Of a stretch of 42,525 nucleotides of DNA, positions 173 through 41,826 are shown piece after piece (position 1 is the stretch's first letter; each line of letters opens with the position of its first letter). Origin of the DNA: an uncultured bacterium. GTDB taxonomy: Bacteria > Patescibacteriota > Minisyncoccia > Phycocordibacterales > DATDWN01. The translations under genes and the position numbers were made by a program. The stretch spans positions 1 to 42,525 of the forward strand of contig CAIOTC010000017.1 of NCBI GenBank assembly GCA_903861205.1. The letters run 5' to 3'. The notes under the pieces were generated by a model that saw only the letters and a list, made by a program, of their open reading frames with translations, did not search any database and was not told the DNA's origin.

Positions 173-1279
173 TTATTTTAGGCCATTATTTAGATACTCC
201 ATTATAATTTCATGAACCTCATCGGCGTTTTCCGCTTCCATCAATTTCATTCGCAATTCTTTGGCACCATCAAAGCCATTTACGTACGCTTTGAAATGTT
301 TTTTCATGACGGCAAACGATTTTCCCTGCCCTATCGGCGGTTTCGGCTGAACGATTTCCGAAAAAAGTTTTGTGTGTTCGTCGAGAACTTTTAGTTTTTC
401 AGGAACCCCAAGGGGAACCCTTAAATTTCCAATTCCCAAGGGTTCCCCTTTGGGTTCATTCGATGCGGGTGCGAACAACCACGGGTTGCCGAAAATGGCG
501 CGGCCGATCATCACGCCGTCGCAGCCGGTTTCGCGCGCTTTTTGTTTGGCGTCCGCTACGCTCGTCACATCACCGTTGCCGAAAATGAGTGTCTCACTTT
601 TTTCTCCGTTTGGTCTGCGCCAAGCATCGCGAATCTCCACAGCGCGTTTTATATGTTCCCATCGCGCCGGCACCAGCGAGAGTTCTTTTCGCGTCCGAGC
701 GTGAATGGTGATAACCGCCGGTTTCGTTTCGAGCAAAGCCGGTAACCATGTTTCCAGTTCATTTTTATTCCAGCCAATTCGAGTTTTGACGGAAATTGGT
801 ATCTCCCCGAGGAGAGACCTTGGGGTGCCTAAGGACTCACCTCGGGGAGACCTCTGAATGCGGGCGCCTTGTTTGGCGGCCAAAATAATTTCCTGCGCCA
901 GTTTAGGATTCTGCATTAGCTTCGCGCCGGCGCCCTGCTTTTCCACGCTTTTGTCCGGACAACCCATGTTGATGTCGATGCCGTCAAAACCAAGTTCGAC
1001 GGCCAGCTCGGCGGCTTTACGCATCATCTCCGGATCGCTCGTAAAAAACTGCGCCACGATAGGTCGTTCGCTTTCATCGAAAGCCAAATCGCCGATCAGC
1101 GCTTCCCTACCGCCCAGAAAAAGTCCGTCCGCCGAAACAAACTCCGTCCACATCACGTCCGGCTTGCCGTATTTGGCAATAATTGCTCGAAAAGCCCGAT
1201 CGGTAACATCCGCCATCGGCGCCAGGCACAATATTGGCTCGCCCTTCTTTTCTTTTTTTAACTTCTGCCAAAAATTCAT
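173..1279 (-). CDS. dus: tRNA-dihydrouridine synthase (Dus family). Start moved to the ATG giving MNFWQKL; the track ORF begins at an upstream TTG.
   Basis: LCLAPMADVTDRAFR, GFDGIDINMGCP and KTRIGW motifs are typical of the Dus TIM barrel. The gene contains two in-frame hairpin segments (403-457, 802-850). Confidence 0.9.
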   Translation of the reverse strand: MNFWQKLKKEKKGEPILCLAPMADVTDRAFRAIIAKYGKPDVMWTEFVSADGLFLGGREALIGDLAFDESERPIVAQFFTSDPEMMRKAAELAVELGFDGIDINMGCPDKSVEKQGAGAKLMQNPKLAQEIILAAKQGARIQRSPRGESLGTPRSLLGEIPISVKTRIGWNKNELETWLPALLETKPAVITIHARTRKELSLVPARWEHIKRAVEIRDAWRRPNGEKSETLIFGNGDVTSVADAKQKARETGCDGVMIGRAIFGNPWLFAPASNEPKGEPLGIGNLRVPLGVPEKLKVLDEHTKLFSEIVQPKPPIGQGKSFAVMKKHFKAYVNGFDGAKELRMKLMEAENADEVHEIIMEYLNNGLK

Positions 1280-8787: not shown

Positions 8788-8910
8788 CAAATTTCTTACG
8801 AGCCAACACTTTTCCGTCGCCAGAATATTTTTCTGCTGAAAAATTTCTTCCTGCTCGTCTCTTCACGGGCTCCGCAATGCGCCGTAAAAGCGTCGGCTCG
8901 ACAAAATTTG
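8788..8910. repeat. Family L element copy 3 (short form)
   Basis: The sequence caaatttcttacgagccaacactttt ... aaaagcgtcggctcgacaaaatttg is about 90% identical to copies at 35812-35950 and (reverse complement) 24610-24744. Confidence 0.85.
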
Positions 8911-8921
8911 CTAGTGGTTAT

Positions 8922-16167: not shown

Positions 16168-16240
16168 GTACAAAAAGAGTACCAAATTTTTCGATTTGAT
16201 ACAACTTTTGTCATAAAGGTTCGACCTTGATGCCCAGTTC

Positions 16241-18925
16241 CTAAGGTCGAACCTTGGAGGAGGAATCCGACACAAAACTCTCAGTCACAAACGAACCACG
16301 ACGGCCTTTTTTGACAGTAAGGATATACTCCTCGCCTTTCATATCCACTGCAATTTCCCCACCTTTGGAAATTCCCTTGCTGACAATGAGCGAGGCAATC
16401 GGCGTCAGAATTTTATTTTGGATCAATCGTCGAAGCGGGCGAGCGCCATACTGCGGATTGTAACCTTCCTTGGCCAAGTGGTCGTAAACCGCTTGCGTCA
16501 ATTCGAGTGTAATTTCTTTTTGAGCCAATCTGTCTTTCACAATATCGATTTGAATTTTGACAATTTCGGCGATAGCTTCCCTGCTCAAAATGTCAAAGAC
16601 GATGATGTCGTCGAGACGGTTCAGAAATTCCGGTCGGAAGTGATCTTTCAGCGCTTCCATCACTTTTGTTTTGGCATCTTCGTAACCGGCCTTTTCATTT
16701 TTGTCGACGGCGAAACCGATTTTTTGCATTTTGTCGATGTACTGCGAGCCGATGTTCGACGTCAAAATGATAACCGTGTTGCGGAAATTGGCCACGCGGC
16801 CTTTCGCGTCCGTCAATCGTCCGTTGTCGAGAACTTGAAGCAAAATGTTGAAAACTTCCGGATGAGCTTTTTCGATTTCGTCGAAAAGAATAACCGAGTA
16901 TGGGCGATGTCGAACAAGCTCCGTCAAATTTCCACCCTCCTCGTAACCGACATAGCCAGCCGGCGCGCCGATCAGTTTCGAGACGGAATGTTTTTCCATG
17001 TATTCGGACATGTCAATTCTGATGAGTGCTTTGTCATCGTCGAACATGAATTGCGCCAGCGCTTTGGTCAGCTCTGTTTTTCCCACGCCAGTCGGACCGA
17101 GGAAAAGGAACGAACCGATCGGACGATTCGGATCGGCCACCCCAGCACGCGAACGTTTAACCGTGTCGGAAATTTTTATGACAGCTTCTTTTTGGCCGAC
17201 AATGCGCTTTTCCAAAACATCTTCCATGCGTGAAAGTTTATCCGCTTCCTCCTCGAGCATTCGCGAGACTGGAATTCCCGTCCATTTTGAAACAATCGAA
17301 GCGATATCGTTTTCGGTCACTTCCTCCTTCAAAATTCTGCGCGAACTTTGCAATTTTTTCAATTTTTTCGATTTTGAATCCAAATCTTTTTCATAAGCGG
17401 GGATTGTGCCATAGCGAATCTCGGCCGCCTTTGACAAATCCACCCGCCCTTCGGCAACATCGGCTTCCCGACGCGCTTCCTCGAGTTGCTTCTTTAAATT
17501 TTTGATGTCGCTGACCGTTTCCTTTTCATTATTCCACTTCAATTCCAACTCGCCTGTTTTTTCTTTCAAATCGGCAATTTCTTTTTCGATTTCTTTGACA
17601 CGAGACTTGGATTTTGAATCGGTTTCTTTTTTGAGTGCCTCGCGTTCGATTTCAAGCTTAACCACTTTCGAATGCGTCTCCTGCAAAATCGGTGGCATAT
17701 TTTCTAGCGCAATTTTCAGATGCGAAGCCGACTCGTCGATCAGGTCGACCGCTTTGTCCGGCAAAAATCTGTCGGCGATATAACGACTTGAAAGGTTGAC
17801 CGCGGACACAATGGCTTCATCGGTGATGCGCACACCGTGGTAGAGCTCATACTTTTCTTTCAGTCCGCGCATAATGGTGATGGCATCGTCGATCGACGGC
17901 TCGTTGACGTAAACAGGCTGAAAGCGACGAGTCAGCGCCGGATCCTTTTCGATATATTTTTGATATTCCTTGAGTGTTGTCGCGCCAATCGCCCGCAGTT
18001 CTCCGCGCGCCAGTGCCGGTTTGAGCATGTTCGAAGCGTCGAGCGAACCCTCCGCTGCGCCGGCTCCGACAATGGTGTGAATTTCATCGACGAACAAAAT
18101 TATTTTGCCGTCGGAACGTTCGATTTCTTTCAAAATATTTTTCAGACGTTCCTCGAACTCCCCGCGATATTTCGTGCCGGCCACCAAAAGTCCGAGGTCA
18201 AGCGAAACGAGTTCCTTGTCTTTGAGCGATTCCGGCACGTCGTGGGTGGACATGCGGATGGCCAAACCCTCGACGATGGCGGTTTTGCCGACACCAGCCT
18301 CACCGATCAGAATCGGATTATTTTTCGTTCGACGAGAAAGAATCTGAATGATGCGCGAAATTTCACTGTCGCGTCCGATGACCGGATCGAGTTTATTCTG
18401 GTGAGCCAAGTGCGTCAGATTGCGAGTGTACTTGGAAAGCGCTTTAAACTTTTTTGGCGCTTCCTGCTCAACACTTTTCGTGCTCTTTATTTCCCCCAAA
18501 CAACGCAAAACAGTTTCCTTGTCGATTTTGAATTTCATCAAAAGGTCGTGCGCCGGGGAAGGCGTTTCGATGGTGGCGATGAAAAGATGTTCCACTCCGA
18601 CAAACTCGTCGCGCATGTCGGAAGCTACTTTTCCGGAAGCTTCGATGACTTGGGCCAGCTCGGGCGTCAAATAAATCTGATACGAAGCAGAAAGTGTTTG
18701 GCCTGTTTCGGTGCCTTCGATGGTGTCGAGAAGCGAATCGGTCAGAAGTATAGTGTCCACCTCGAGACGATCGAGAATCGACGGGACGATCGATTCTTCC
18801 TGCAAAATAAGCGCGGTCAAAAGGTGGAGCGGGCTGACATGATTTTGACCGCGTTCAATAGCCAGCTCGTGAGCTTTGCGAATGGATTCTTTGGCTTTTG
18901 TTGTAAATTTTCCAAATGGAGGCAT
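16241..18925 (-). CDS. clpB: ATP-dependent chaperone ClpB
   Basis: A Clp N domain, two AAA+ modules ([16 protein letters not shown]) and a long coiled-coil middle domain are present. The size is 894 aa. Confidence 0.95.
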
Positions 18926-19430: not shown

Positions 19431-21443
19431 ATGAATAAGAAAACACTTACGGGACCGATATCAATCAATTCCAAGGGAATTGGTTTTTTTGATTTGCCGG
19501 ACAAAAAAGAGGAATCGCTGGAAATTCAGCCTGAGAATTTGGCGCGGGCTTTTCACGGAGATGTCGTTGAAGTCCAAAAGCTTGGTGGTCCTAAACCGAG
19601 AAAAAGTCTTGGTCGGGCGAGAGAAGTCAAAGAGCAAGCCAAAGTGGTCAGAATAATTTCTCGCGCCAAAACTCAATTCGTCGGCATAATCCAAAAAACA
19701 GACGACAAATCATTTTTGATTCCGGATGATAAAAGAATGTACGTGGATATTTTTATTGACCCAAAATCTTTAGCAAGGACAGTCCTTGCTAAAACTGAAA
19801 ACCAGAAAATTCTTGTAGAAATCACCGACTGGCCGGAAACGGAGAAAAATCCGCGCGGAAAAGTTGTTAAAGTCATCGGTACAGCCGGCGAAAACAACAC
19901 CGAGATGGAATCAATCGTTTTGGAAAAAGGTTTCCGAGTCGACTTCCCTGCCGAAGTTTTGGCCGAGGCGGAAAAAATTAAAAATGAATACAAAAGTCAT
20001 TTTGCCGAGGAAGTGAAAAATCGCCGCGACATGCGCGAAACTTTAACCATGACTATCGATCCTGCCGACGCCAAAGATTTTGACGATGCCATTTCTTTTA
20101 AAGAACTTTCCGACGGAACTTTTGAAATCGGCGTGCATATTGCCGACGTGTCATATTTCGTCACGCCCGGCACAGTGCTTGATCGCGAGGCGGAAAAACG
20201 AGGACTGTCAGTTTATCTCGTCGATCGAACTATTCCGATGTTGCCGGAAGTTTTAAGTAATGACCTTTGTTCTCTCAATCCAAACGAGGACAAGTTCACT
20301 TTTTCGGCCGTTTTCAAAATCGACAAAAATGCCAAGATTTTAGACAAATGGTTTGGCCGAACTGTCATTCACAGCGACAAAAGATTTTCATACGAAGACG
20401 CTCAGAAAGTTTTGGACAATGCGAGCTCACCTGGTGTCAACGGCGAAGCAACGTGGTCACCGGGTGTGGGCGCATTGTCCAAACTAAACAACCTCGCAAA
20501 AATTCTGGAGAAGCAAAAATTTGGCGCAGGCGCAATTAATTTTGAAACAGACGAAGTTAAATTCGTTTTGGACGCGGCCGGCAAACCTCTTTCAGTTTAC
20601 AGAAAAACTCGCCTGGACACGCACAAGCTTGTCGAGGAATATATGCTCCTGGCCAATCGCGCGGTCGCCGAACATATTTTCCATTCTCAAAATAACGAGT
20701 CCTTAGCAAGAACTGTTCTTGCTAAAAAACAAAGTGTTTACAGAATTCACGGCAAACCTGATCCGGAACGCATCGAAGCATTGGCGTTTTTTTTGAAAGC
20801 GCTTGGTTTTGATTTGCGAAACGAAAAAGGTTCTGTCACCTCGCGCGACATCAACAAACTGCTCAAGCAGGTGGAAGGCACACCGAACGAAGAACTGATC
20901 AAAACCGCCACCATTCGCAGTATGGCCAAAGCCGTTTACTCGACCAAAAATATCGGGCACTTCGGTCTGGCTTTCAGATTTTACACGCACTTCACCTCGC
21001 CTATTCGCCGATATCCCGATTTGCTGGTGCACAGATTTTTGGAACGCGAAATCGATGGCGGAAAAATTGCTCCAAATGAATACGAGAAATTTGAAAAGTC
21101 ATGCTTGGCACTCTCCGAACTGGAAAAGAAAGCCAGCGACGCAGAAAGAGCCAGCATCAAATACAAGCAGGTTGAATACATGCAATCGCATGTCGGCGAA
21201 ACTTTCCAAGGCACTATCACCGGCGTAACCGACTGGGGAATTTACATCGAGGAAAAAATTACCAAATGCGAAGGCATGGCAAAACTACGCGACCTGAATG
21301 ACGACTATTATGTCCTCGACGAAAAAAATTACACAATCCGCGGCCAGCGCACCGGCAAAAAATACACACTTGGTGATTCTGTCACATTCAAAGTTGTGGC
21401 GGCAGACATGGAGAAAAGAGTTTTGGATTACCAGATTTTGTAA
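19431..21443 (+). CDS. rnr: Ribonuclease R (RNB family 3'-5' exoribonuclease)
   Basis: The RNB core (TIDPADAKDFDDAIS, VYLVDRTIPMLP, FTSPIRRYPDLLVHR) and a C-terminal S1 domain are present. The size is 670 aa. Confidence 0.9.
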   Translation: MNKKTLTGPISINSKGIGFFDLPDKKEESLEIQPENLARAFHGDVVEVQKLGGPKPRKSLGRAREVKEQAKVVRIISRAKTQFVGIIQKTDDKSFLIPDDKRMYVDIFIDPKSLARTVLAKTENQKILVEITDWPETEKNPRGKVVKVIGTAGENNTEMESIVLEKGFRVDFPAEVLAEAEKIKNEYKSHFAEEVKNRRDMRETLTMTIDPADAKDFDDAISFKELSDGTFEIGVHIADVSYFVTPGTVLDREAEKRGLSVYLVDRTIPMLPEVLSNDLCSLNPNEDKFTFSAVFKIDKNAKILDKWFGRTVIHSDKRFSYEDAQKVLDNASSPGVNGEATWSPGVGALSKLNNLAKILEKQKFGAGAINFETDEVKFVLDAAGKPLSVYRKTRLDTHKLVEEYMLLANRAVAEHIFHSQNNESLARTVLAKKQSVYRIHGKPDPERIEALAFFLKALGFDLRNEKGSVTSRDINKLLKQVEGTPNEELIKTATIRSMAKAVYSTKNIGHFGLAFRFYTHFTSPIRRYPDLLVHRFLEREIDGGKIAPNEYEKFEKSCLALSELEKKASDAERASIKYKQVEYMQSHVGETFQGTITGVTDWGIYIEEKITKCEGMAKLRDLNDDYYVLDEKNYTIRGQRTGKKYTLGDSVTFKVVAADMEKRVLDYQIL

Positions 21444-21467
21444 AAAACTGAAATTTTTGGAATATAA

Positions 21468-21508
21468 AATCCTCCGGCTTCGCCACCTCCTTTAAGAAAG
21501 GAGGAATT
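21468..21508 (+). repeat. 42-nt two-hairpin unit (family U), forward orientation
   Basis: The unit reads aatcctcc-ggcttcgcc-a-cctccttt-aag-aaaggagg-aatt. Confidence 0.8.
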
Positions 21509-21516
21509 GATGCATT

Positions 21517-21946
21517 AATCTCCCTTTTTTAAAGGGAGTGGCCGAAGGCCGAGGGATTTTTAGTGCATTCCACAATTTTTCTTACACAACTCTCTAAATT
21601 AGTTTTTATATCAATATCTCTGAATCTAATTATTTTGACTCCAGCATTCTTTAAAATCTCATCTCTCACCTCATCATTTTCTATTTTTGCATCATGACTA
21701 ATGCCGTCAATTTCAATTGCAAGATTTAATTTTGAACAATAAAAATCAACTATGTAGTTGTTGATAGGTCTCTGTCTCAAAAATTGGCAACCTAATTTTT
21801 TATCTTTTATTTCTTTCCATAGCAATACTTCAGATAATGTTGATTCGTTCCGTAACTTTTTGGAAAATTTTTTTAGATTTTTATTGTAAATGAGTTTCAT
21901 AAAATCCCTCCCCGCTTCGCGGTACTCCCTTTAAGAAAGGGAGATT
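21517..21946 (-). mobile_element. Candidate compact element: a DUF559 endonuclease gene bounded by inverted family-U units (21517-21558 and 21903-21946)
   Basis: The left end is aatctcccttttttaaagggagtggccgaaggccgagggatt. The reverse complement of the right end is aatctccctttcttaaagggagtaccgcgaagcggggagggatt. The unit pair at 29077-29172 shows the same two-end arrangement with only 12 nt between the ends. Confidence 0.5.
21529..21900 (-). CDS. DUF559 / Vsr-like (PD-(D/E)xK) endonuclease domain protein
   Basis: LLWKEIKDKKLGCQFLRQRPINNYIVDFYCSKLNLAIEIDGISHD...IIRF is the DUF559 pattern. The last 9 codons (NPSAFGHSL*) are encoded by the flanking repeat unit. Confidence 0.8.
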   Translation of the reverse strand: MKLIYNKNLKKFSKKLRNESTLSEVLLWKEIKDKKLGCQFLRQRPINNYIVDFYCSKLNLAIEIDGISHDAKIENDEVRDEILKNAGVKIIRFRDIDIKTNLESCVRKIVECTKNPSAFGHSL

Positions 21947-21956
21947 TGAATGCGGG

Positions 21957-24609: not shown

Positions 24610-24744
24610 GGCAACAAAATTTCGTCGAGACAATACTTTTTGGGCGCATTGCGGAGTGCGTGAAGACACGAGCAGGAAGAAATTTTCCAGCAGGAAAATA
24701 TTCTGGCGACCAAAAAGTGTTGGCTCGTAAAAAATTTTGTTGCC
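24610..24744. repeat. Family L element copy 4 (short form, opposite orientation to copies 3 and 7)
   Basis: The sequence ggcaacaaaatttcgtcgag ... ctcgtaaaaaattttgttgcc has a reverse complement that aligns along its whole length with 8788-8910. Confidence 0.85.
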
Positions 24745-25449: not shown

Positions 25450-25467
25450 ACACGGAGTATAACACAC

Positions 25468-25540
25468 AAATTTTCAATTTACAATTTCAAATTTTCAATG
25501 AATTTCCCAATGAACCAATTTTCAAAAATTCTTCAATCTA
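25468..25540. repeat. AT-rich hairpin family W, partial copy 1 (upstream of rnc)
   Basis: The sequence ttttcaatgaatttcccaatgaaccaatt matches the centres of the copies at 26780, 34033 and 34512. Confidence 0.6.
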
Positions 25541-25629: not shown

Positions 25630-25828
25630 AAAAATAATTAGCAGAATTTCGTCGATGTCGTTTCGTTTTCGGAGCATCCACAGCCCGCGAGCATGGTTTT
25701 GTCAACGACCCCGCCTTCGGGGTGGGGCTCATTGACAAATCGCGGGCGAGGACAGAGAAAATTTTTCGCCGGAAAATTTTCGTCTCCGAAAAGGAAACAA
25801 CTCGTAAGAAATTCTGCTAATTATTTTT
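25630..25828. repeat. Family L element copy 5 (long form)
   Basis: Perfect 21-nt outer arms aaaaataattagcagaatttc / gaaattctgctaattattttt overlap the nusB stop codon. The core shares ccttttcggagacgaaa, ttctctgtcctcg, gatttgtcaatgagcccc, ggggtcgttgacaaaaccatgctcg and ggatgctccgaaaa with 37952-38184. Confidence 0.85.
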
Positions 25829-26711: not shown

Positions 26712-26779
26712 GTCTTACAATATAGTGTATCAAATGACAGATATGATATCAACAAACAAGAATTGCGAACTGAACCGAA

Positions 26780-26892
26780 CAATTTCCAATGATCAATTTT
26801 CAATTTTCAATGAATTTTACAATGAACCAATCGTCCAATTGAAGAATTGATTCATTTATTGGAAATTGAAAATTGTTACTTGAAAATTTCCT
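26780..26892. repeat. Family W hairpin copy 2 (between the nusB start and the rpmF stop)
   Basis: The arms are caattttcaattttcaatgaat / attcatttattggaaattgaaaattg. The centre is caatgaaccaatcgtccaattgaagaattg. Confidence 0.75.
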
Positions 26893-27120
26893 TTATCTTC
26901 CTTCCTTCTGATTTGCTTTTGCTTTCTTTGTTCGTTTTTCGATTTTTGCCTGCACGTCCAAAACCTGTCGGCCTTTGTACTGGCCGGTCACTAAAGAAGC
27001 TCGGTGCCGCAAGTGCGGAACACTGGAATTTTTGTCCATGGTGACAGCCGGGTTCGACAATCTGTGATGAGATCGCGTGTTGCCTCGCTGGCTCCTGTTG
27101 TGTCGCATTCGTACTACCAT
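26893..27120 (-). CDS. rpmF: 50S ribosomal protein L32. Start moved to MVVRMRH.
   Basis: MVVRMRHNRSQRGNTRSHHRL...HLRHRASLVTGQYKGRQV matches the L32 pattern (R.sk.r...RRsH..l........c...Ge..l.H). Confidence 0.8.
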   Translation of the reverse strand: MVVRMRHNRSQRGNTRSHHRLSNPAVTMDKNSSVPHLRHRASLVTGQYKGRQVLDVQAKIEKRTKKAKANQKEGR

Positions 27121-28355: not shown

Positions 28356-29048
28356 TCAAACCAGGTTTTTGCAAAAAGATTTGCGATGAAAAAGGGAGAG
28401 ACCGTGAGTTTGAATGGCAGTGCGATGCGCGAGCGTGCCATAACCTTTGTGAATATGAAAATTGTAAAGCGGATATTTTTTGCTCGCTTTGCACATTAGT
28501 TTGTCACGCGAAACTTTTGCCAAAATCGACGCCCAGGCGATAATTTTTTCTTTTTCGTCGCCTTTTATAATAGTAAATTGTTTTACTTGTTTAACAGAAT
28601 ATCCGTTTGTAAGTTCAGCTGGAACTTTTAATCCCCCATCTAATAAAATTTTTAATTTAAAATTTTTAATTTTTAAATAATTTTTAATGTCTAAATTTCC
28701 AAAACCTTTTGCAATGGCTTTTTTGATGCATTTGGAAATTCCGATTTTGTCGATTTCTTTGTTTGAGATATGAACAATTTGAGCTTGCAGAAGGGCACCT
28801 TCTGCAGAATTCGTGCAGAAGGTGCCCTTCTGCAACTGTTCCAAGACTTTTGCATACTTCTCGCGAGATTCCGGAGAAAGTTTTTTGCTGTCTTTGCCGA
28901 GTGGTGGCAAACGCCCCGCCACACCGGCGGGCAAGTTGTTTCGCTTCAGTTTGGCGTACAATTTTTCCTCACACATCACAATCCCCACCGTCACAGGCCC
29001 TGCCAATGGTCCCCTCCCAACTTCGTCAATGCCGATAATGTAGTTCAT
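28356..29048 (-). CDS. rnhB: Ribonuclease HII. Start moved to MNYIIGIDEVGRGPLAGPV.
   Basis: GIDEVGRGPLAGPV, DSKKLS and ASILAKVSRD are RNase HII motifs. The gene carries a 51-nt double hairpin and an AT-rich in-frame block. Confidence 0.9.
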   Translation of the reverse strand: MNYIIGIDEVGRGPLAGPVTVGIVMCEEKLYAKLKRNNLPAGVAGRLPPLGKDSKKLSPESREKYAKVLEQLQKGTFCTNSAEGALLQAQIVHISNKEIDKIGISKCIKKAIAKGFGNLDIKNYLKIKNFKLKILLDGGLKVPAELTNGYSVKQVKQFTIIKGDEKEKIIAWASILAKVSRDKLMCKASKKYPLYNFHIHKGYGTLAHRTAIQTHGLSLFHRKSFCKNLV

Positions 29049-29076
29049 AAAAATAGAGTTTACGCATTTGTGCACC

Positions 29077-29172
29077 ATTCTCCCTTTCATAAAGGGAGTG
29101 GCCGAAGGCCGAGGGATTTTTTGATTTCAAAATCCTCCGCCCTGCGGGCACCTCCTTTAAGAAAGGAGGATT
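29077..29172. repeat. Gene-less pair of family-U units (reverse then forward orientation, 12-nt spacer)
   Basis: The sequence is attctccctttcataaagggagtggccgaaggccgagggatt - ttttgatttcaa - aatcctccgccctgcgggcacctcctttaagaaaggaggatt. Confidence 0.8.
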
Positions 29173-29248
29173 AATGCGTGAGCTATTAAAGAATATCTTA
29201 TCACAAAAATAAAAGCCCCGGCGTTTCCGCGCGGGACTGTACAACTTT

Positions 29249-29750: not shown

Positions 29751-32700
29751 ATGTCAAAGTTTATCCACTTACATACTCACAGTCATTACAGCTTGCTCAA
29801 TGCCCTGCCGAAACTCGACGAGCTGGTCAAGACTGCCAAGAAGATGGGAATGGCTTCGCTGGCTTTGACCGACAACGGCAATCTGTACGGCGCCATTGAG
29901 TTTTACAAGGAATGCCAGAAACACGAGGTCAAGCCGATCATTGGCGTCGACGCTTATGTCGCCTACCGTTCGCGAAATGACAAACAAGCCGGCATCGACA
30001 AGGAACGCTATCGACTAGTCCTACTGGCCGAAAACGAAACCGGTTACAAAAATTTGATCCAACTCGTCACCATTTCCCACCTGGAAGGTTTTTATTACAA
30101 ACCGCGTGTGGACAAAGAAATTTTGGAAAAATATCACGAGGGACTGATCGCTATCGCACCGTCATTTTCGAACGACATTTCACAATCGCTGGAAACGATG
30201 CATGTGGAGCAGGCGATGGAGCGACTGGAGTGGTACAAGAAAGTCTTTAACAAAAAATCCAACAAGGGGGACCCTTGTGGTTCAGGATTACAAGGGTCCC
30301 CCTTGTTGGACCAAAGTCAGACCTCGGGGAACTTCTTCATTGAAATCACCCACCATCCTGAAATAAAAGGTCACGAGGAAAAAATGAAAAAACTTTTGGA
30401 CTTCGCTAGGCAAACGAACACACCGATTGTGGCGGCGCATGATGTCTATTATATGAATCCCGAGGACCGAGCCGCTCGCGAGACACTCATGGCTGTCATG
30501 AACAACGGCGACATATCCGACAAGTTGGACGAAAAAACGGACGACTTTTCATTCATTTCGCCGGAAACTGCCGAAAAATATTTCAAAAATTTGCCTGACG
30601 CGCTTGAAAACACCGAAAAAATCGCCGAGAGATGCAACTTGAAACTCGAACTGGGCAAATGGGTTTTCCCGAATTACATTTTGGATAGCGGACTTTCATA
30701 TGACGAGGAACTTCGCAAGGAAGCGCTGGCCGGTTTCGAAAAACGCGGGCTTTCGCAAACAGCCGAGGAAATGGAGCGCATGGAGTATGAATTGAAAGTG
30801 ATCAAGGACAAAGGTTACTCGCCATACTTTTTGGTGGTGGCGGACCTGCTTCGCTTTTCGGAAGAAAATGGAATTTTCACAAACATCAGAGGTTCGGTGG
30901 CCGGCTCTCTCGTCACCTACCTGACCGGCGTCACCAAAGTCAATCCACTGGTTTACAAAATTCCGTTTGAAAGATTTCTCAACCCAGAGCGTCCGTCGGC
31001 GCCCGACATCGACATGGACTACGCCGACAACCGTCGCGACGAGGTGATTGATTACGCTCGTCGAAAATACGGCGTGAACAACGTTGCCCAAATCGGTACG
31101 TTCGGTACGATGGCCGCCCGCGGATCCGTGCGCGACGTCACTCGCGCCATGGGTTTTGCCTACTCGCTCGGAGACTCGATTGCCAAACTGATTCCGATGG
31201 GCGCGCAGGGATTTCCCATGACCATCGACCGCGCTCTCAAAGAAGTGCCGGAGTTGAAAGAATTGTACAAAACTCAGGCCGATGTCAAAAAAATAATCGA
31301 CATGGCCAAAAAAATCGAGGGTTGTGCCCGCCACATCTCGGTGCACGCTGCCGGCGTAGTTATTTCGCCCACAACGCTGACCGATTTCGTTCCGCTTCAG
31401 TACGATACCAAAGGCGACAACAAAATCATCACACAGTACGACATGCACGCCGTCGAGGACGCCGGGCTTTTGAAGTTTGACTTTCTCGGCATCAGAAACC
31501 TTTCCATTTTGGCCGACGCCGTTCATCGCGTCGAAGCGATTGAAGGCAAAAAAATCGACATCGAACAAATTCCGCTCGACGACAAAAAAACTTTCGACAT
31601 GCTCACTCGTGGAGAAACGATCGGACTTTTCCAGCTCAACGGCGACGGTATGACGAGATGGTTGAAAGAACTCAAACCGACAACCATTTTCGATATCAAC
31701 GCCATGGTCGCTTTGTACCGACCCGGCCCGATGGAGTGCATTCCGCAATACATCGAGCGCAAACATGATCCGAAAAAAATAAAATTTCTTGATCCGCGAA
31801 TGAAAACGATTTTGGATCAATCATTCGGCGTCATCACTTACCAGGACGACGTGCTCATGTGCGCCATCAAACTCGGCGGATATTCCTGGCTCGAAGCCGA
31901 CAAACTGCGTAAAGCCATGGGCAAGAAAATTCCGGCTGTTATGCAGGCCGAGAAAGAAAAACTTCTGGCCGGACTTTTGAAAAATGGAATGTCGCCAGAA
32001 AAAGCGGACGAGCTGTGGAAGTTGATTGAGCCGTTTGCCGCCTACGGTTTCGGCAAAGCGCACGCCGCCAGCTATGGACGCGTGGCTTACCAAACTTCGT
32101 ACATGAAAGCCAACTTCCCTGCTATATATATGTCAGCCGTTCTGACTGCCGAGTCGGGCGACGTGGAAAAAGTGGCCGAAATCATTGGAGAGTGCAAGCG
32201 TATGAAAATTCCCGTTTTACCACCGGATATAAATCAGTCGTTCGGCGGGTTCAGTGTGGTGAAAGGCAAAAAAAGGGTGCCCCTTTTAAATCCTGACGAA
32301 AAGGGGCACCCTTTTTCTGATTCCGAATCAGACAAAATCAGATTTGGATTGACCACCATTAAAAATTTCGGTGAGGGAATCGGCGCGTCGATTATTGCCG
32401 AAAGAAAAGCGAACGGCGAATTCAAATCGCTTTCCGATTTTCTGCGCCGGATCAAAGATAAAAACTTGAACAAAAAATCGCTCGAGTCGCTCATCAAAGC
32501 CGGCGCGATGGATCGGTTCGGCGAACGCGCCACGCTTCTTTACAACTTGGAAACGTTGCTCGCCTTCAACAAAGAAGAACGAGCCAAGGAAACGGACCAG
32601 ACTTCCCTTTTCGGACTTTTGTCGGAGCCGGAAAAAGCGAGCGAAATTCATTTGGAAAAAGCACCGGTTTCAAATCCGGCCGATGCTTTGTTGTGGGAAA

Positions 32701-33060: not shown

Positions 33061-33219
33061 GCAAATCTCAATTTCGCATTCCTTTCCAGAGTAACCTCAA
33101 AAACTCCTGCGAGTTTTTGAGGCTGATCCTCGGCCAAAACTTGTCAAGATGGAATGCCTTGACAAGACCATGCTTTTGGCCTGCGGAGCCTCCGGAAAGG
33201 AATGCAAAATGAGATTTGC
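33061..33219. repeat. Family L element copy 6
   Basis: The outer arms are gcaaatctcaatttcgcattcctttccagag / ctccggaaaggaatgcaaaatgagatttgc. The core has tcctcggcc...cttgtcaag...cttgacaag...catgcttttggcctgcggagcctcc, parallel to copies 5 and 8. TAGTGGTGA follows. Confidence 0.8.
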
Positions 33220-33285
33220 TAGTGGTGATGGAAAAAATGCAGGATTAGGAATAAAATTAGACTATTAATAAATAATTATAAAATC

Positions 33286-33584: not shown

Positions 33585-33774
33585 CCCTGTAGTAGAAGTT
33601 GACATTGCGCCAAAGCGCTTAGAAAGATGTCAACTTCATTACAGGATACATCCCGTAGTGAAAATGGCATTAATTTCATTGACTACGCGGTTATTTAACA
33701 AAAATCGGTATTATTAATATTTAATTTTGAAATGACATATTGCTCGTAGAGCGATGCCATTTTCTACTAACAGG
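33585..33774 (+). repeat. Structured 190-nt repeat, family S copy 1 (directly upstream of rpsU)
   Basis: It is about 80% identical to 41422-41613. It contains four copies of a CYGTAGTRGAA motif arranged as two inverted pairs. Confidence 0.8.
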
Positions 33775-33783
33775 ATGATAAAA

Positions 33784-34032
33784 ATGGTAAATGCGGAGGT
33801 TGTTAGGACCGGAAATGAAAACAACGTAAACCTCATCAGAAGGTTCACCAAACGCGTCCAGGGATCGGGCGTTTTGCCTCGTGTCCGAAGCATCCGCTAC
33901 TCGTCTCGCAAGCAATCCGAGTACGTTAAAAAGAAAAAAACTCTCAAAGTTTTGAAACGCCGCGAAGAAGTCAACGAGCTCATCAAAATGGGAAAAATGG
34001 TGGAGAATACCAGGGGACCGAAGAAAAAATAA
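33784..34032 (+). CDS. rpsU: 30S ribosomal protein S21. The start is uncertain between 33775 and 33784.
   Basis: MVNAEVVRTGNENNVNLIRRFTKRVQGSGVLPRVRSIRYSSRKQSEYVKKKK fits the S21 pattern (ALRRFKR...G.l.e.R.R..Y.kPSe.rk). Confidence 0.8.
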   Translation: MVNAEVVRTGNENNVNLIRRFTKRVQGSGVLPRVRSIRYSSRKQSEYVKKKKTLKVLKRREEVNELIKMGKMVENTRGPKKK

Positions 34033-34136
34033 TTTTTCAAGTATCAATTTCCAATTTCCAATGAATTTCTCAATGAACCAATTGTCCAATTGAAGAATTG
34101 GAAAATTCATTGGAAATTGGAAATTGGAAATTTTTA
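34033..34136. repeat. Family W hairpin copy 3 (between rpsU and ybeY)
   Basis: The arms are caatttccaatttccaatgaattt / aaattcattggaaattggaaattgg. The centre is ctcaatgaaccaattgtccaattgaagaattgg. Confidence 0.8.
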
Positions 34137-34142
34137 GTAACT

Positions 34143-34523
34143 ATGAACAACATTTTCTCCATAACCAACACTACGCGAGGCGAAGTTCCTGGTGTTGATT
34201 TTTTGCCTATTAAGGACTCTGTACTGGGTAAAAAATACGAACTTTCACTGGTTTTTGTCGGCGATAAAAAATCACAAACGCTCAACAACAAATATCGAAA
34301 ATTTAACAAACCGACAAATTGTCTCAGTTTCTCGCTCGGCAAAAATTCCGGAGAAATTTTCATCAATTTGGGCAAGGCAAAAAAAGAAGCGCCGAGCTTT
34401 GGCATGAAATTCGAAAAGTTCATAATTTACTTGTTTATTCACAGTTGCTTGCATTTGAAAGGAATGGATCATGGGAGTATAATGGAGAAAGCAGAAGAAA
34501 AAATGCTAAAAATTTTCAAGTAA
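34143..34523 (+). CDS. ybeY: rRNA maturation endoribonuclease YbeY. Start moved to MNNIFS.
   Basis: TNCLSFSL and the metal-binding motif HSCLHLKGMDH are present. The size is 126 aa. Confidence 0.85.
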   Translation: MNNIFSITNTTRGEVPGVDFLPIKDSVLGKKYELSLVFVGDKKSQTLNNKYRKFNKPTNCLSFSLGKNSGEIFINLGKAKKEAPSFGMKFEKFIIYLFIHSCLHLKGMDHGSIMEKAEEKMLKIFK

Positions 34524-34620
34524 CAATTTCCAATTTCCAATAAATGAATCAATTTTTCAATTGAACAATTGGTTCATTGGAAAATTCATTGAAAATTGGA
34601 AATTGGTCATTGAAAATTTC
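34512..34620. repeat. Family W hairpin copy 4 (between ybeY and ftsA; approximately the reverse complement of copy 2)
   Basis: The sequence is aaattttcaagtaacaatttccaatttccaataaatgaatc...gattcattgaaaattggaaattggtcattgaaaattt. Its centre is the reverse complement of the copy 2 and 3 centres. Confidence 0.8.
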
Positions 34621-34628
34621 CCCTTCCC

Positions 34629-35807
34629 ATGCGCAACATCACCGTCGGCATCGACATAGGCACGTACCAAGTCAAAGTGGTCGTCGCTGAGCTCGTCAAA
34701 GAGAACGAGAAATTATCTCCCCGTATCATCGGGACCGGTTTTGCCGAGTCAAAAGGTTTGCGCCATGGCTACATCATCAACAGCAAGGACGTCACAGGGA
34801 GCATCAAAACGGCAGTTGAATTGGCCGAAAAAGCCTCCGGCGTCAGAATCCGCAAAGCTTTCGTGGCCATCGGCGGCATCGGCCTTCAGTCCGTCACCAG
34901 CACCGCCTCGGTCATGGTCAGCCGAGCCGATTTGGAAATCACCGATCTCGATATTAGTAAAGCGGCCCAGTTGTGCGAAGAAGATTTGCCGACGGCGCTC
35001 ATTCAAAACCGCCGCGTTCTGCACAGCATTCCCCTTTCGTATAAAATCGACGGCAAAGCTGTTTATGCCAAAACACCACTCGGCATGAAAGCCGGGCGTC
35101 TGGAAATTCGAATGCTTTTCATTACCTGTCTCGAGCCGCACCTGAACGACCTGATGCAAGCAGTCGAAGAAGCCGGCATCGAAATCATCGACGTCATGGC
35201 CTCTCCCATTGCCGCCAGTTTCGTCACTCTGACCAAATCGCAAAAAATCGCCGGTTGCGTCCTGGCCAACATCGGTGCCGAAACTATTTCGATCGTCGTT
35301 TTCGAAAACAACATTCCGATTTCGCTCGAAGTTTTCCAAATCGGCTCGACTGACATCACCAACGACATCGCTTTGGGTTTGAAAATTCCACTGGAAGAAG
35401 CGGAGAGTATGAAAATTGGCAGGCTTGGTTCAGGCTCGTTTTCCAAGAAAAAATTGGAGGAAATAATCCACGCCAGGCTCTCCGACATGTTCGAACTGAT
35501 CGAAAACCATTTGAAAAAAATCGGCCGAAGCGGACTTTTGCCCGCCGGGATTTTTCTGTCCGGCGGCGGAGGCAACATCGGCACGATCGAGGATTTTGCC
35601 AAAGTGGCGCTGAAGCTCCCTTCGCGCATCGCCTCGCTCAACTTGGCCGATCCGAAAGCTCGCATAAAAGACTCGACCTGGGCGGTGGCCTACGGCCTGT
35701 GCATGCTCGGTTTTTCCAAGGAAGATAAAAAAGAACTCGGAGTGAAAGTCAGTTTTAATGAGACGAAGGAGAAGATTTTAGGGTGGATAAAACAGTTTTT
35801 ACCGTAA
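34629..35807 (+). CDS. ftsA: Cell division protein FtsA
   Basis: The actin-fold start VGIDIGTYQVKVVVAE and the segment LSGGGGNIGTIEDFAK are present. The size is 392 aa, in a division cluster with ftsZ. Confidence 0.9.
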   Translation: MRNITVGIDIGTYQVKVVVAELVKENEKLSPRIIGTGFAESKGLRHGYIINSKDVTGSIKTAVELAEKASGVRIRKAFVAIGGIGLQSVTSTASVMVSRADLEITDLDISKAAQLCEEDLPTALIQNRRVLHSIPLSYKIDGKAVYAKTPLGMKAGRLEIRMLFITCLEPHLNDLMQAVEEAGIEIIDVMASPIAASFVTLTKSQKIAGCVLANIGAETISIVVFENNIPISLEVFQIGSTDITNDIALGLKIPLEEAESMKIGRLGSGSFSKKKLEEIIHARLSDMFELIENHLKKIGRSGLLPAGIFLSGGGGNIGTIEDFAKVALKLPSRIASLNLADPKARIKDSTWAVAYGLCMLGFSKEDKKELGVKVSFNETKEKILGWIKQFLP

Positions 35808-35811
35808 TCGT

Positions 35812-35950
35812 TTTGAACTAAAATTTCTTACGACCCAACACTTTTCCGTCGCCAGAATATTTTCCTGCTGGAAAATTTCTTCCTGCTCACCTCTTCACGG
35901 GCTCCGCAATGCGCCGTAAAAGTGTCGGCTCGACGAAATTTTAATTCAAA
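35812..35950. repeat. Family L element copy 7 (short form)
   Basis: The sequence tttgaactaaaatttcttacgacccaacactttt ... aaaagtgtcggctcgacgaaattttaattcaaa aligns with 8788-8910. Confidence 0.85.
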
Positions 35951-36788: not shown

Positions 36789-37946
36789 ATGCCACAAATC
36801 AAACCAGAAGTAGAAGCATTCGCTCGGATCAAAGTTCTCGGCATCGGCGGTTCCGGAAAAAACGCGCTCAACCACATGATCAACTCGAAAGTTCGCGGAG
36901 TTGATTTCATTGCCGTCAATACCGACTCGCAGGATTTGCACAACTCGATGGCCAAGAGGAAAATTCATATCGGTAAAAACCTCACTCGCGGATTGGGCGC
37001 CGGAATGAATCCGGAACTCGGCAAACGGGCCATTGAAGAAACGAAAGAGGAAATTCAAGAAGCGGTCAAAGGATCCGACATGGTTTTTATCGCCGGCGGA
37101 CTTGGGGGCGGAACTTGCACGGGCGCAGCGCCGGTTGTGGCTCGCATTTCAAAAGAAATGGGCGCGCTAACCGTGGCTGTCGTGACCAAACCGTTTTTCT
37201 TTGAAGGCCAGCAAAGAATGAAAATCGCCGACGTCGGTCTTGACGAACTTCGCCAAGCGGTTGACGCCATCATCGTCATTCCAAACGACCGACTACTCTC
37301 AACCATCAGCAAAGAAACGACCGCTAAAAGCGCCTTTGCCATGTGCGACGACGTTTTGAAATCGGCTGTCGAAGGTATCTCCGACCTCATCACCACACCC
37401 GGCATCATCAACATCGACTTCGCCGATATCAAAGCCGTCATGGAAAACGCTGGACCGGCCCTGATGGGCATCGGCACGGCTACGGGTGAAAAACGCGCCG
37501 AGGAAGCGGCCAAATCGGCCATCAATTCCCCACTGCTCGAAGTTTCGATCAACGGCGCCAAAGGTGTACTGTTCTCGATTGCCGGCGGAGACGACCTGGG
37601 CATGTTCGAAATCCAGGACGCTGCCAAAATCATTACCGAGTCCGTCGATCCAAACGCCAAGATTATTTTCGGAACCGTTCGCGACGAAAAACTGAAAAAA
37701 GGCGAAGTTAAAATCACCGTCATCGCTTCCAACTTCCCGGAAAATTTCACCAAGAAAACGCTTTTCCAGGCGCAGGCCAGCAACGCACCAATTTCCGATC
37801 GCCGAGAGATGGAAGAGGAGAAGGGTAAAATCTACAACTCAATCCCCGTCTCATCACCAAGAATGGATGAAAAGATAGATGTCGTTGAAGAAGACGACGA
37901 ATGGGGAGCTGTCCCGGCGTTTTTGAGAAGGTCAAAAATTAAATAA
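36789..37946 (+). CDS. ftsZ: Cell division GTPase FtsZ
   Basis: GIGGSGKNA, the tubulin signature GGLGGGTCTGAAPV and NIDFADI are present. The size is 385 aa. Confidence 0.95.
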   Translation: MPQIKPEVEAFARIKVLGIGGSGKNALNHMINSKVRGVDFIAVNTDSQDLHNSMAKRKIHIGKNLTRGLGAGMNPELGKRAIEETKEEIQEAVKGSDMVFIAGGLGGGTCTGAAPVVARISKEMGALTVAVVTKPFFFEGQQRMKIADVGLDELRQAVDAIIVIPNDRLLSTISKETTAKSAFAMCDDVLKSAVEGISDLITTPGIINIDFADIKAVMENAGPALMGIGTATGEKRAEEAAKSAINSPLLEVSINGAKGVLFSIAGGDDLGMFEIQDAAKIITESVDPNAKIIFGTVRDEKLKKGEVKITVIASNFPENFTKKTLFQAQASNAPISDRREMEEEKGKIYNSIPVSSPRMDEKIDVVEEDDEWGAVPAFLRRSKIK

Positions 37947-37951
37947 TTTTC

Positions 37952-38184
37952 AAAAATTTCTTAAAACATTACCTTTTCGGAGACGAAAGCCCGTCCAGCG
38001 ACGGGCTTTCTCTGTCCTCGGCCTCGATTTGTCAATGAGCCCCTCTCCAGTTTTAAGGTCTGGCCTTGGGAAATTGGCTGTTTAAGGCCAGACCTTTGGA
38101 ATCCAAAACTGGGGAGGGGTCGTTGACAAAACCATGCTCGAGGCCTGCGGATGCTCCGAAAAGGTAATGTTTTAAGAAATTTTT
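37952..38184. repeat. Family L element copy 8 (long form) carrying a nested double hairpin at its apex (38047-38112)
   Basis: Perfect 24-nt outer arms are aaaaatttcttaaaacattacctt / aaggtaatgttttaagaaattttt. The core is collinear with the reverse complement of copy 5. TAGTGGTGA follows. Confidence 0.85.
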
Positions 38185-38243
38185 TAGTGGTGACTTTGTT
38201 GACAAAATTTCATCCGTGAGTAGACTGATTTTGGAGGAAAATT

Positions 38244-38411
38244 ATGTCAACTTTAGGAATAGTGTTGTCTTGCATTGGAGTATTTTTCCTGGTTGTTGCG
38301 GAAATGCAGTTAATAAAATACAACAGATCAAAAATTTCAATTTTGATTACCGGAATGGTTTTTTATGTTTCTGGTTTTGTTTTGATCTGGATTTACAAAA
38401 AACCACTTTGA
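38244..38411 (+). CDS. Small two-TM membrane protein (55 aa), below the ORF-track cut-off
   Basis: It reads MSTLGIVLSCIGVFFLVVAEMQLIKYNRSKISILITGMVFYVSGFVLIWIYKKPL*. The RBS GGAGGA is upstream and a terminator lies at 38428-38457. Confidence 0.5.
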   Translation: MSTLGIVLSCIGVFFLVVAEMQLIKYNRSKISILITGMVFYVSGFVLIWIYKKPL

Positions 38412-38496: not shown

Positions 38497-39426
38497 ATGA
38501 ATCAATCTTTCGACTTAATCATTATCGGTGGCGGACCTGCTGGAGTGAGTGCGGGGGTTTATGCGGCGCGGAAGAGATTGAAAACTTTGCTGGTTACGGC
38601 GGATTTTGGAGGGCAATCGATCGTTTCGGACAGCATAGAAAACTGGATTGGCACGCCAAAAATTTCGGGCAAAGAGCTGGCCGAAAATTTGAAAAAACAC
38701 CTCCTTTCCTACGCCGGTGACATCGTCGAAATACACGAAGCAGAATTCGTCAGAGACATTGCCAAATCAGACGGCAATTTTTCCGTTACAACTGACAAGG
38801 GCGTTTACGAAACAAAATCAATTCTCGTCGCCACCGGTAGCGGCCGACGCAAACTGGAAATTCCCGGCGCCAGCGAGTTCGACAACAAAGGTGTCACCTA
38901 TTGCGCTTCGTGCGACGGTCCGCTTTTTGCGGGACAGGACGTGGTAGTTATCGGTGGAGGCAATGCCGCTCTCGAGTCGGCCGCCCAGCTTTTGGCATAT
39001 TGCAAATCAGTTACTTTGCTCAATCGCTCAGAAAAATTGAAAGGCGATGAAATTACCATCGAAAAACTTTTGCAAAATCCGAAATTCAAAATTATTAAAA
39101 ACGCCGCGCCGACCGAGATCAGGGGCGATAAGTTCGTTACCGGCATTGTTTATGAGGACACTTTGACCGGAGAAAAACACGAAATCGCCGCGCCGGGAAT
39201 TTTCGTCGAGATCGGCCTAGTGCCAGCCACCATGTTCGCCAAAAATATTTTAGAGCTCAACAAAATCGGCCAAATCCCCGTCGATCCGAAAAATCAACAA
39301 ACCGCCGTCCCCGGAATTTGGGCTGCCGGAGACTGCACCGACGCTCTCTATCACCAAAACAACATCGCCTCCGGCGACGCCGTGCGAGCTCTTGAGGACA
39401 TCTACTTGTGGCTGAAAACGAAGTAA
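38497..39426 (+). CDS. trxB: Thioredoxin-disulfide reductase
   Basis: FAD motif IIIGGGPAGVSAG, redox-active CASCDG, NADPH motif VIGGGNAALE and GIWAAGDC are present. The size is 309 aa. Confidence 0.9.
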   Translation: MNQSFDLIIIGGGPAGVSAGVYAARKRLKTLLVTADFGGQSIVSDSIENWIGTPKISGKELAENLKKHLLSYAGDIVEIHEAEFVRDIAKSDGNFSVTTDKGVYETKSILVATGSGRRKLEIPGASEFDNKGVTYCASCDGPLFAGQDVVVIGGGNAALESAAQLLAYCKSVTLLNRSEKLKGDEITIEKLLQNPKFKIIKNAAPTEIRGDKFVTGIVYEDTLTGEKHEIAAPGIFVEIGLVPATMFAKNILELNKIGQIPVDPKNQQTAVPGIWAAGDCTDALYHQNNIASGDAVRALEDIYLWLKTK

Positions 39427-39510
39427 ATCCTCCGCCCTGCGGGCACCTCCTTTAGGAAAGGAGGATTAAATCTCCCTTTTTTAAAGGGAGTGGCCGAAGG
39501 CCGAGGGATT
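39426..39510. repeat. Gene-less pair of family-U units (forward then reverse, directly abutting)
   Basis: The sequence is aatcctccgccctgcgggcacctcctttaggaaaggaggatt-a-aatctcccttttttaaagggagtggccgaaggccgagggatt. It starts on the trxB stop codon. Confidence 0.8.
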
Positions 39511-39524
39511 TATTTTTACATTCT

Positions 39525-41421: not shown

Positions 41422-41613
41422 GCCCGGTAGTAGAAGTCGACATTGCGCCAATGGCGCATAAAAAGATGTCGACTTCACTACAGGGCTATCCTGTAGTGAA
41501 AATGACATTAATTGCATTGGCTACGTGGTTAAGTAACAAAAATCGAAACTATTAATATTTAATTTTGAAAATGATGTATTGTTCGAAGAACGATGCCATT
41601 TTCTACTATCGGG
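41422..41613 (+). repeat. Family S copy 2 (directly upstream of the XRE regulator gene)
   Basis: It aligns with 33585-33774, including compensatory changes in hairpin 1 (gaagtTgacat/atgtcAacttc versus gaagtCgacat/atgtcGacttc). Confidence 0.8.
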
Positions 41614-41826
41614 ATGGAAAATAAAATCACCGAGTATAGAAACAAGCTGGGTATAACGCAAGAAGAACTGGCGCATTTTGTCGGTGTCACCCGCCAAACA
41701 ATCATCTCGCTCGAGCAAAACCGCTACAACCCTTCCCTGCTTCTAGCACACAGAATTTCTCAAGTATTGAAACGTCCACATATCGAGGACGTGTTTCTGC
41801 TGGATAAATTGGAAAAAATATTTTAA
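41614..41826 (+). CDS. Short XRE-family HTH transcriptional regulator (70 aa). Start moved to MENKITEYR.
   Basis: [48 protein letters not shown] is a canonical Cro/C1 HTH. Confidence 0.8.

Follow-up and report, generated by a model that had tools for sequence, protein, structure and literature searches.

Does a hairpin of the kind that interrupts bacterial genes also sit at the tip of another hairpin element, and if so, how did it come to be there? The question is raised by positions 38047-38112 of a 42,525-nucleotide stretch of DNA from an uncultured member of the Parcubacteria (CPR), analysed here as a whole and called the window. A 66-nt segment at these positions, the nest, occupies the apex of a rod-like intergenic element named L. 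A first-pass annotation had seen in it the insertion of one hairpin element into another, linking the hairpins of coding and non-coding DNA. Our preferred reading, to which we give a probability of about 60%, is that the nest, a copy from a family of twin palindromes, joined the tip of L as one discrete unit, that it arose by copy-and-paste at the level of DNA, and that its arms were kept complementary afterwards. The comparative DNA behind this reading is all metagenomic.

The L element

The host of the nest, L copy 8, is a rod-like element of 233 nt on the plus strand (37952-38184) with perfect 31-nt outer arms (37952-82 / 38154-84) and a predicted folding energy of -144.2 kcal/mol (z -15.4). 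It lies after the stop codon of ftsZ (37946) and before a promoter-like site of the next gene (38199-38226), a site that is also conserved in a relative without L. The window holds two more copies: copy 5 on the minus strand (25657-25799; 123.7 bits against the covariance model R1), with an ordinary apex segment of 26 nt, and a copy downstream of dnaE on the plus strand (33076-33207; 102.8 bits), with a short one of 11 nt. All three are located between co-directional genes, on the sense strand. Copy 5, whose apex ccccaccccgaaggcgggg (25709-25727, minus strand) served as the comparison for the nest, and copy 8 are paralogous copies and not alleles of one site.

A search with a motif of the L core returned 31 loci in GTDB genomes of Patescibacteria (L002-L032), and about 40 copies have been found in Patescibacteria DNA, several per genome. 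In the DNA compared, R1 gives 39 matches at E <= 0.01, with the weak L007 and L026 counted in, where E-values of the covariance models here and below are rough because of a shortened calibration. A smaller, later search with R1 also picked up an S-type element, a repeat described further on, at a weak 21 bits (24629-24722). Thirty L copies can be aligned over 152 columns; RNAalifold predicts 35 pairs in this alignment, 20 of them with compensatory changes, and the internal loops are nearly invariant. Copy 8 has the conserved core and the four covariation-supported helices by which R1 defines L, its match on the plus strand (37967-38171, 128.8 bits) running through the full-length model with a 73-nt insertion state at the apex. 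Rfam 15 recognized three tRNAs only in the whole window, assigned no family to 37900-38250 even at a permissive threshold (best match E 0.23) and produced no matches in 20 metagenome loci, and no description of L in CPR bacteria was found in the literature searched. L is a conserved structured intergenic motif, probably an RNA and probably transcribed; it looks like an undescribed class of RNA.

In the closest relatives (L033, L034/L035 and L036, with FtsZ proteins 92-93% identical), L is wholly absent between ftsZ and the next gene. Their L-less spacers (3505-3540 in L033 and 6396-6435 in L034, corresponding to 37946-38200 of the window) retain the downstream promoter-like sequence. Since the whole of L is missing and this sequence is kept, L is gained or lost as a unit. 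For the same reason there is no orthologous L copy with an empty apex to set beside copy 8, as the nearest relatives have no L at all at the ftsZ site. A box, TAGTGGTGA, occurs in exact form only twice in the window, at 33220-33228 and 38185-38193, each time just 3' of an L copy, and once more with one mismatch at 8912-8920. Similar boxes trail the L copies in L012, L017 and L021, and the box could be a processing or promoter signal.

Sequence and fold of the nest

The nest, read on the plus strand of L, is composed of an outer 8-bp extension, a twin-palindrome element and a 3' bulge. Arm 1 (AAGGTCTGGCCTT, 38055-38067) fits the signature AAGG-N5-CCTT, and arm 2 (AAGGCCAGACCTT, 38084-38096) is its exact reverse complement with the same AAGG...CCTT ends, just as first described (100% complementary, 16 nt apart). 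Between them lies a 16-nt loop, GGGAAATTGGCTGTTT (38068-38083), that fits the loop consensus of the family, [G/T]G[G/A]GAA..TGG...TTT, on this strand only. An unpaired bulge of 8 nt, TGGAATCC (38097-38104), separates arm 2 from the outer stem in predicted folds, and below it a lengthened apical helix is formed by CCCCTCTCCAGTTTT (38040-38054) and AAAACTGGGGAGGGG (38105-38119), 15 nt each and 93% complementary. The same pair of arms recurs unchanged in a metagenome locus, L052.

The term double hairpin, under which the nest was first described, is apt only in that each arm is also a small near-palindrome. On its own the nest is predicted to form one hairpin (-30.6 kcal/mol, z -4.6), and within L it is predicted to continue the stem as one long, uninterrupted hairpin that stacks on it, where a pair of hairpins side by side might have been expected. 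Core positions 1 and 5, which form Watson-Crick pairs in 63 of 81 family members, face each other as T-G (wobble) in arm 1 and as C-A in arm 2. No terminator-like site, that is, a GC-rich hairpin followed by a T run, is present inside L or the nest, the 3' neighbour of the nest being the 3' strand of the L stem; a role of the nest as terminator or promoter was discarded, with no such site within L. The nest is found in identical form on a second, separately assembled ENA scaffold (L001) and is therefore no artefact of one assembly.

A discrete addition to the apex

If the apex of L varied continuously in length from copy to copy, the nest could be an extreme of gradual divergence, and the first-pass annotation had named such variation as the observation that would speak against an insertion. 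The apex segment was measured between the invariant boxes TTGTCAA and TTGACAA in 32 L copies. Six copies have a segment of 10-11 nt and 24 have one of 21-26 nt; a single copy measures 36 nt, and copy 8 measures 87 nt. The lengths are not continuous, and 30 of the 32 copies fall within 10-26 nt. Taking 61 nt (AGTTTT...AAAACT) out of copy 8 leaves an apex of 26 nt, and taking out 66 nt leaves 21 nt, both canonical lengths. As removal of the nest gives back an ordinary segment, the nest is a discrete addition and not a product of gradual divergence. The insertion is confined to the apical loop: the conserved core of copy 8 is intact, and with the nest in place the copy scores like ordinary L copies against R1. 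The L core thus tolerates the nest.

The apices of other L copies carry neither the AAGG...CCTT motif nor a similar loop, with the exception of a single arm in L107. That copy (469-685 of L107) has an apex insertion of about 100 nt, unlike the nest, which starts with a lone AAAGGT-aaga-ACCTTT palindrome; the presence of this unrelated insertion marks the L apex as a permissive site. Where the 5' half of an L element should stand in L007 (3896-4092), an S-like element is attached to the 3' half instead, perhaps a further instance of one element breaking into another.

Twin palindromes in the window

A member of the family has a pair of 13-nt arms that begin with AAGG, end with CCTT and have cores reverse-complementary to each other, with 14-16 nt between the arms; the nest has all of these features. 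The arm signature AAGGNNNNNCCTT occurs 13 times in the window against an expectation of 0.74, with a maximum of 4 in 100 shuffles. Ten of the 13 sites combine into five pairs whose cores are reverse complements: one in dus, one over the clpB stop codon, two in dnaE and the nest itself. R2, a covariance model trained on 24 copies from metagenomes and on none from the window, recovers all five. Its best matches are the copy over the clpB stop codon (16210-16261, minus strand, 48.1 bits) and an in-frame copy in dus (404-456, minus strand, 45.8 bits), and the nest comes third (38049-38102, plus strand, 43.2 bits, E 4.6e-11). The two copies in dnaE, both in frame, score 29.6 bits at site 1 (30258-30310, with a 21-bp perfect stem) and 24.2 bits at site 2 (32267-32319, opposite a 22-aa gap in a comparison with Taq DnaE). 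A diverged second copy in dus (803-849, 18.8 bits) has arms of a GAGG/CCTC type. The proposal that the nest is built like the hairpins within dnaE and dus is thereby borne out by an independent model. The further comparison with rnhB needs a qualification: the hairpin there (28785-28835) does have twin AAGG/CCTT arms and a 22-bp perfect stem, and it is a variant, each arm being an AAGG-GCA-CCTT palindrome with a 3-nt centre.

R2 scores the nest in a strand-specific manner, with 43.2 bits on the plus strand compared to 29.6 on the minus strand. The advantage of 13.6 bits on the strand of L arises because the loop GGGAAATTGGCTGTTT fits the consensus.

Could the resemblance be due to a chance palindrome or an error of assembly? 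Apart from the fact that the window is a metagenomic contig, nothing specific speaks for this, and the excess of AAGGNNNNNCCTT, the E-value of the nest against R2, the identical sequence on a second scaffold and the preservation of reading frames by the intragenic copies make it hardly credible. An explanation at the level of protein, a conserved peptide, was rejected as well, since the reading frame of the arms changes from site to site.

Some single palindromes share part of this design. The RNase R gene contains two perfect ones with AAGG/CCTT-like cores (19769-19793 and 20703-20725), both encoding SLARTVLAK, and single AAGG-N5-CCTT palindromes also occur at 5428 and 22341.

Other repeats of the window

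Several other repeats occur in the window. Rod-like intergenic elements of an S family are found at 1293-1462 and 24616-24737 and, on the minus strand, at 8789-8909 and 35821-35941; they have outer termini AATTTCGTCGAG...CTCGTAAGAAATT in common with L copy 5. Hairpin repeats such as CACCTCCTTTaagAAAGGAGG, which mimic a Shine-Dalgarno/anti-Shine-Dalgarno duplex, lie at 21465-21559, 21904-21948, 29062-29174 and 39425-39511, two copies of this type flanking a gene for a DUF559 (Vsr-like) endonuclease (21529-21900). AT-rich palindromic repeats of AATTTCCAATTT-like units are intergenic as well (25461-25526, 26773-26902, 34024-34153 and 34503-34639), and two copies of a repeat about 130 nt long, 79-88% identical to each other, lie at 33650-33782 and 41488-41621.

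Range and orientation of the family

The pattern AAGGN5CCTT-N14-16-AAGGN5CCTT was scanned in JGI metagenome contigs, where it gave at least 124 matches at no fewer than 120 loci. In 83 of the 124 matches listed, the two cores are reverse complements of each other, one mismatch being allowed. As a negative control, IMG/VR viral contigs were scanned for the same pattern; they gave 29 matches with a single near-complementary one, which is the level of chance, and carriage by phages was ruled out on this ground. Within the matches listed, 63 of 81 unique copies have arms that each form a palindrome of 5 bp about a centre of 3 nt, about a quarter of the copies have a further 5-20 paired bases of copy-specific sequence, and open frames of 150 codons or more contain 28 of the 83 copies with complementary cores. 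The family is therefore present in both coding and non-coding DNA, and the link between the two that had been drawn from the nest holds at this larger scale. The loop has a polar consensus, exemplified by GGGGAAACTCTCTT or TGGAATTGGAATCT, and is usually closed by a G-T pair.

With later finds included, the copies number at least 94; sorted by their flanks they make up 81 groups, a number that is an upper bound for independent sites since orthology was judged from nucleotide similarity of the flanks alone. Dispersal has carried the family into many unrelated contexts and all reading frames, with copies oriented both ways relative to genes. Its taxonomic range is narrow. R2 finds two copies in each of three loci of Zambryskibacteria (14-21 kb) and 5-6 copies in the 42.5-kb window, and nothing significant in 274 kb from 35 other loci of Parcubacteria, the nearest ftsZ relatives included (best E 0.54). 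On the sequences compared, the family is confined to a single, Zambryskibacteria-like lineage within the Parcubacteria. Among the 30 ORFs scanned in the window there are no genes for a transposase, a recombinase or an HUH/Y1 enzyme, and neither a target-site duplication nor a conserved terminal tag was seen at the copies inspected.

Presence, persistence and arm pairing of intragenic copies

Copies inside genes can be compared with orthologous genes that do without them. Both copies in dnaE sit in hypervariable surface loops, and none of the 118 other DnaE homologues in the alignment has them. At either site the loop is minimal in the four nearest homologues (79-82% identical), and the site-2 difference amounts to 16 codons, which is essentially the hairpin alone. 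The diverged copy in dus, aligned to a solved Dus structure (1vhn), corresponds to about 17 extra residues.

Both insertion sites in DnaE are hotspots across Parcubacteria, where other lineage-specific insertions of 15-40 residues are found; the homologues examined at these hotspots were P0124, P0157, P0159, P0191, P0203, P0186 and P0228, and two homologues contain intein domains. A small hairpin of another sequence lies in frame in trxB of L033 (4066-4098, 14 bp, with a CCCTAGG-cgaga-CCTAGGG core), and its addition of six residues is missing from the window and from two other relatives.

In ychF and leuS, copies occupy the same sites in several Zambryskibacteria. The arms in ychF have co-evolved between TCCGA/TCGGA and TTCGA/TCGAA, connected via G-T intermediates. 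The arm centres in leuS are CAG/CTG, CAA/TTG or CGG/CCG, the arms staying complementary, and in L158 all four AAGG half-sites of the leuS copy have become GAGG and the CCTT ones CCTC, in both arms. Not every genome has kept or acquired a complete copy: L160 has neither the ychF nor the leuS copy, the leuS copy of L161 consists of a single arm only, and in L159 the left flank of the leuS copy is an inverted copy of the right flank. In ychF, the linker encoded by the element replaces one of similar length and is not a clean addition. To judge from this series of sequences, such elements can be old, inherited vertically at the same ychF and leuS sites with arms that have stayed complementary by compensatory changes. 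The ychF copy lies in the sense and the leuS copy in the antisense orientation, and a function on the sense strand, in mRNA, is unsupported as a general rule.

This persistence bears on another reading of the family, by which the twin palindrome is a functional motif, for example a putative four-half-site binding site recognized by a nuclease or by a protein of this lineage that binds DNA or RNA. The L copy downstream of ftsZ would then have acquired the motif and kept it for its usefulness, and the family would owe its distribution to selection instead of selfish copying. The orthologous copies in ychF and leuS persist over several genomes with both levels of symmetry kept, the four half-sites of L158 having changed together; the polar consensus of the loop is conserved; and the imperfect arms in ychF are mostly G-T wobbles on one strand. 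Long vertical persistence with kept pairing could indeed reflect host function rather than selfish spread. However, the motif is dispensable for the function of some 40 other L copies, there is no candidate binding protein, and copies are placed in either orientation relative to genes, in arbitrary reading frames of unrelated essential genes and at hypervariable surface loops that close relatives do without. Arbitrary frames, mixed orientations and lineage-specific gains thus disfavour a simple host function, and we consider this reading unlikely.

The irregular copies in leuS bring up a different alternative, in which the L apex grew in place by local inverted duplication or template switching (quasi-palindrome correction) without any imported sequence, its likeness to the intragenic hairpins stemming from a mutational bias shared across the genome. 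Quasi-palindrome template-switch mutation, a process established in E. coli genetics, makes short inverted-repeat arms perfectly complementary, or keeps them so, without selection. The arms of most copies are perfect, as template switching would yield, and stems reach past the arms by 0 to 20 bp in variable, copy-specific sequence. The inverted flanks of L159 and the lone arm of L161 fit as well. Template switching accounts in this way for the upkeep of the arms and the extension of stems, but not for a common loop consensus or for dispersal to unrelated sites. The loop of the nest matches, on one strand specifically, a consensus that recurs at unrelated sites such as dus, ychF, the end of clpB and numerous copies from metagenomes, which local duplication would not lead one to expect. 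The apices of other L copies offer no such sequence beyond the one arm in L107. The shared polar loop therefore argues against a purely local origin, which appears quite improbable.

Relation to known palindromic elements

The closest parallels in behaviour are found in reduced genomes. Rickettsia palindromic elements (RPEs) are in-frame insertions in unrelated housekeeping genes, at structurally permissive positions, with additional extragenic copies (PMC10969869). Twin palindromes have in common with them that palindromic repeats of a reduced bacterial genome occupy housekeeping genes in frame and also occur outside genes. RPEs, however, are about 100-150 bp in length and form sequence-conserved families with a conserved peptide, whereas twin palindromes measure 40-66 nt, can be read in any frame and have co-varying arm centres. 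The two have no sequence relation, and the host here belongs to the Parcubacteria and not to Rickettsia; on size, frames and host, the nest is no RPE.

Mitochondria provide a second parallel in the double-hairpin elements of Allomyces, the GC clusters of yeast and the repetitive hairpin-forming elements of sponges. These are short and GC-rich (PMC2800124; PMC4478555), occur in intergenic DNA, in variable regions of structured RNAs and in protein genes, stay in transcripts, and are restricted to closely related lineages, their mobility being deduced from presence and absence. They are organellar, whereas twin palindromes reside in a free bacterial genome and bear no sequence relation to them, and the four-fold symmetry of AAGG...CCTT half-sites is a property of twin palindromes only. 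Perfect inverted repeats within protein-coding genes, with both arms translated, are known from the mitochondria of Nematomorpha (PMC6649704). Unlike twin palindromes, these organellar repeats reach 284 bp and are not known to share a short signature or loop consensus.

The symmetry of the family has its counterpart elsewhere. A REPIN consists of two inverted copies of an imperfectly palindromic sequence that form one long hairpin (REP survey: PMC3733652). Twin palindromes have the same symmetry at two levels. REP elements are extragenic, begin with a conserved head, GTAG or CGTC, and are accompanied by a RAYT gene, whereas many twin palindromes are intragenic, their arm centres differ, and they come with neither a GTAG/CGTC head nor a RAYT gene in the window. 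A REP/REPIN-RAYT assignment for the nest was rejected accordingly, with no head beside the arms, about one third of the listed copies in long open frames and no Y1/HUH transposase gene in the window. The nest is not a MITE either: arm centres vary between copies, the copies inspected have no flanking direct duplication, and the window encodes no transposase. A CRISPR repeat array was dismissed, the copies being solitary and dispersed. No description of the twin-palindrome family was found in the literature searched on hairpin or palindromic elements of CPR bacteria and Parcubacteria. Taken together, the family is a previously undescribed one that behaves like RPEs and mitochondrial hairpin elements, shows the two-level symmetry of REPINs and is a member of none of these groups.

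A possible origin of the nest

According to the preferred reading, a family copy, a unit of two reverse-complementary arms, each a near-palindrome of the form AAGG(N)-NNN-(N')CCTT, around a 14-16-nt loop with a polar consensus would have been joined to the apical loop of the last L helix. The nest would lengthen this helix coaxially and leave the conserved L core untouched, and would be tolerated for that reason. The same logic of tolerance would hold for the in-frame copies in the surface loops of DnaE and Dus, and probably extends to those in DprA and RNase HII. New copies would come from a copy-and-paste process at the DNA level acting on hairpin-forming single strands, and would land in either orientation and leave no target duplication. 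Afterwards, the arms would be kept complementary by hairpin-templated correction (template switching), by selection, or by both. That an insertion took place, and that some enzyme or process drives the copying, is inferred; a copy-generating process as the source of the nest is plausible. Counting against this reading are the lack of a filled/empty pair for copy 8, the lack of a target-site duplication, terminal tag or transposase gene in the window, the ychF linker that replaces one of similar length, and the single-arm leuS copy of L161, which local duplication or deletion explains no less than insertion does.

A bolder proposal can be put forward tentatively. The twin palindromes may be a new class of self-propagating DNA elements of CPR bacteria, defined by structure, with four AAGG(N) half-sites and a polar loop as their traits, copied via a single-strand hairpin by a lineage-specific enzyme and targeting the tips of hairpins and permissive loops of proteins; their host L would in that case be an undescribed structured RNA widespread in Patescibacteria. 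If this were true, the nest would be a natural insertion map in which the apex of L is dispensable.

Implications

CPR genomes are very small, and yet in this lineage there is a hairpin element every 7-10 kb or so, with in-frame hosts that include dnaE, leuS, ychF and dus, and probably rnhB and dprA. This repeats the situation in Rickettsia and mitochondria and suggests hairpin elements as common companions of genome reduction. The family has a signature that is simple to search for, its copies in metagenomes are many, its orthologous series show compensatory changes and its negative control is clean. It so makes two old questions testable in uncultured bacteria, namely by what means elements of this sort spread and what keeps their arms paired. 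For L itself, the nest marks the apical loop as tolerant of insertion and thereby helps to define the functional core of the element.
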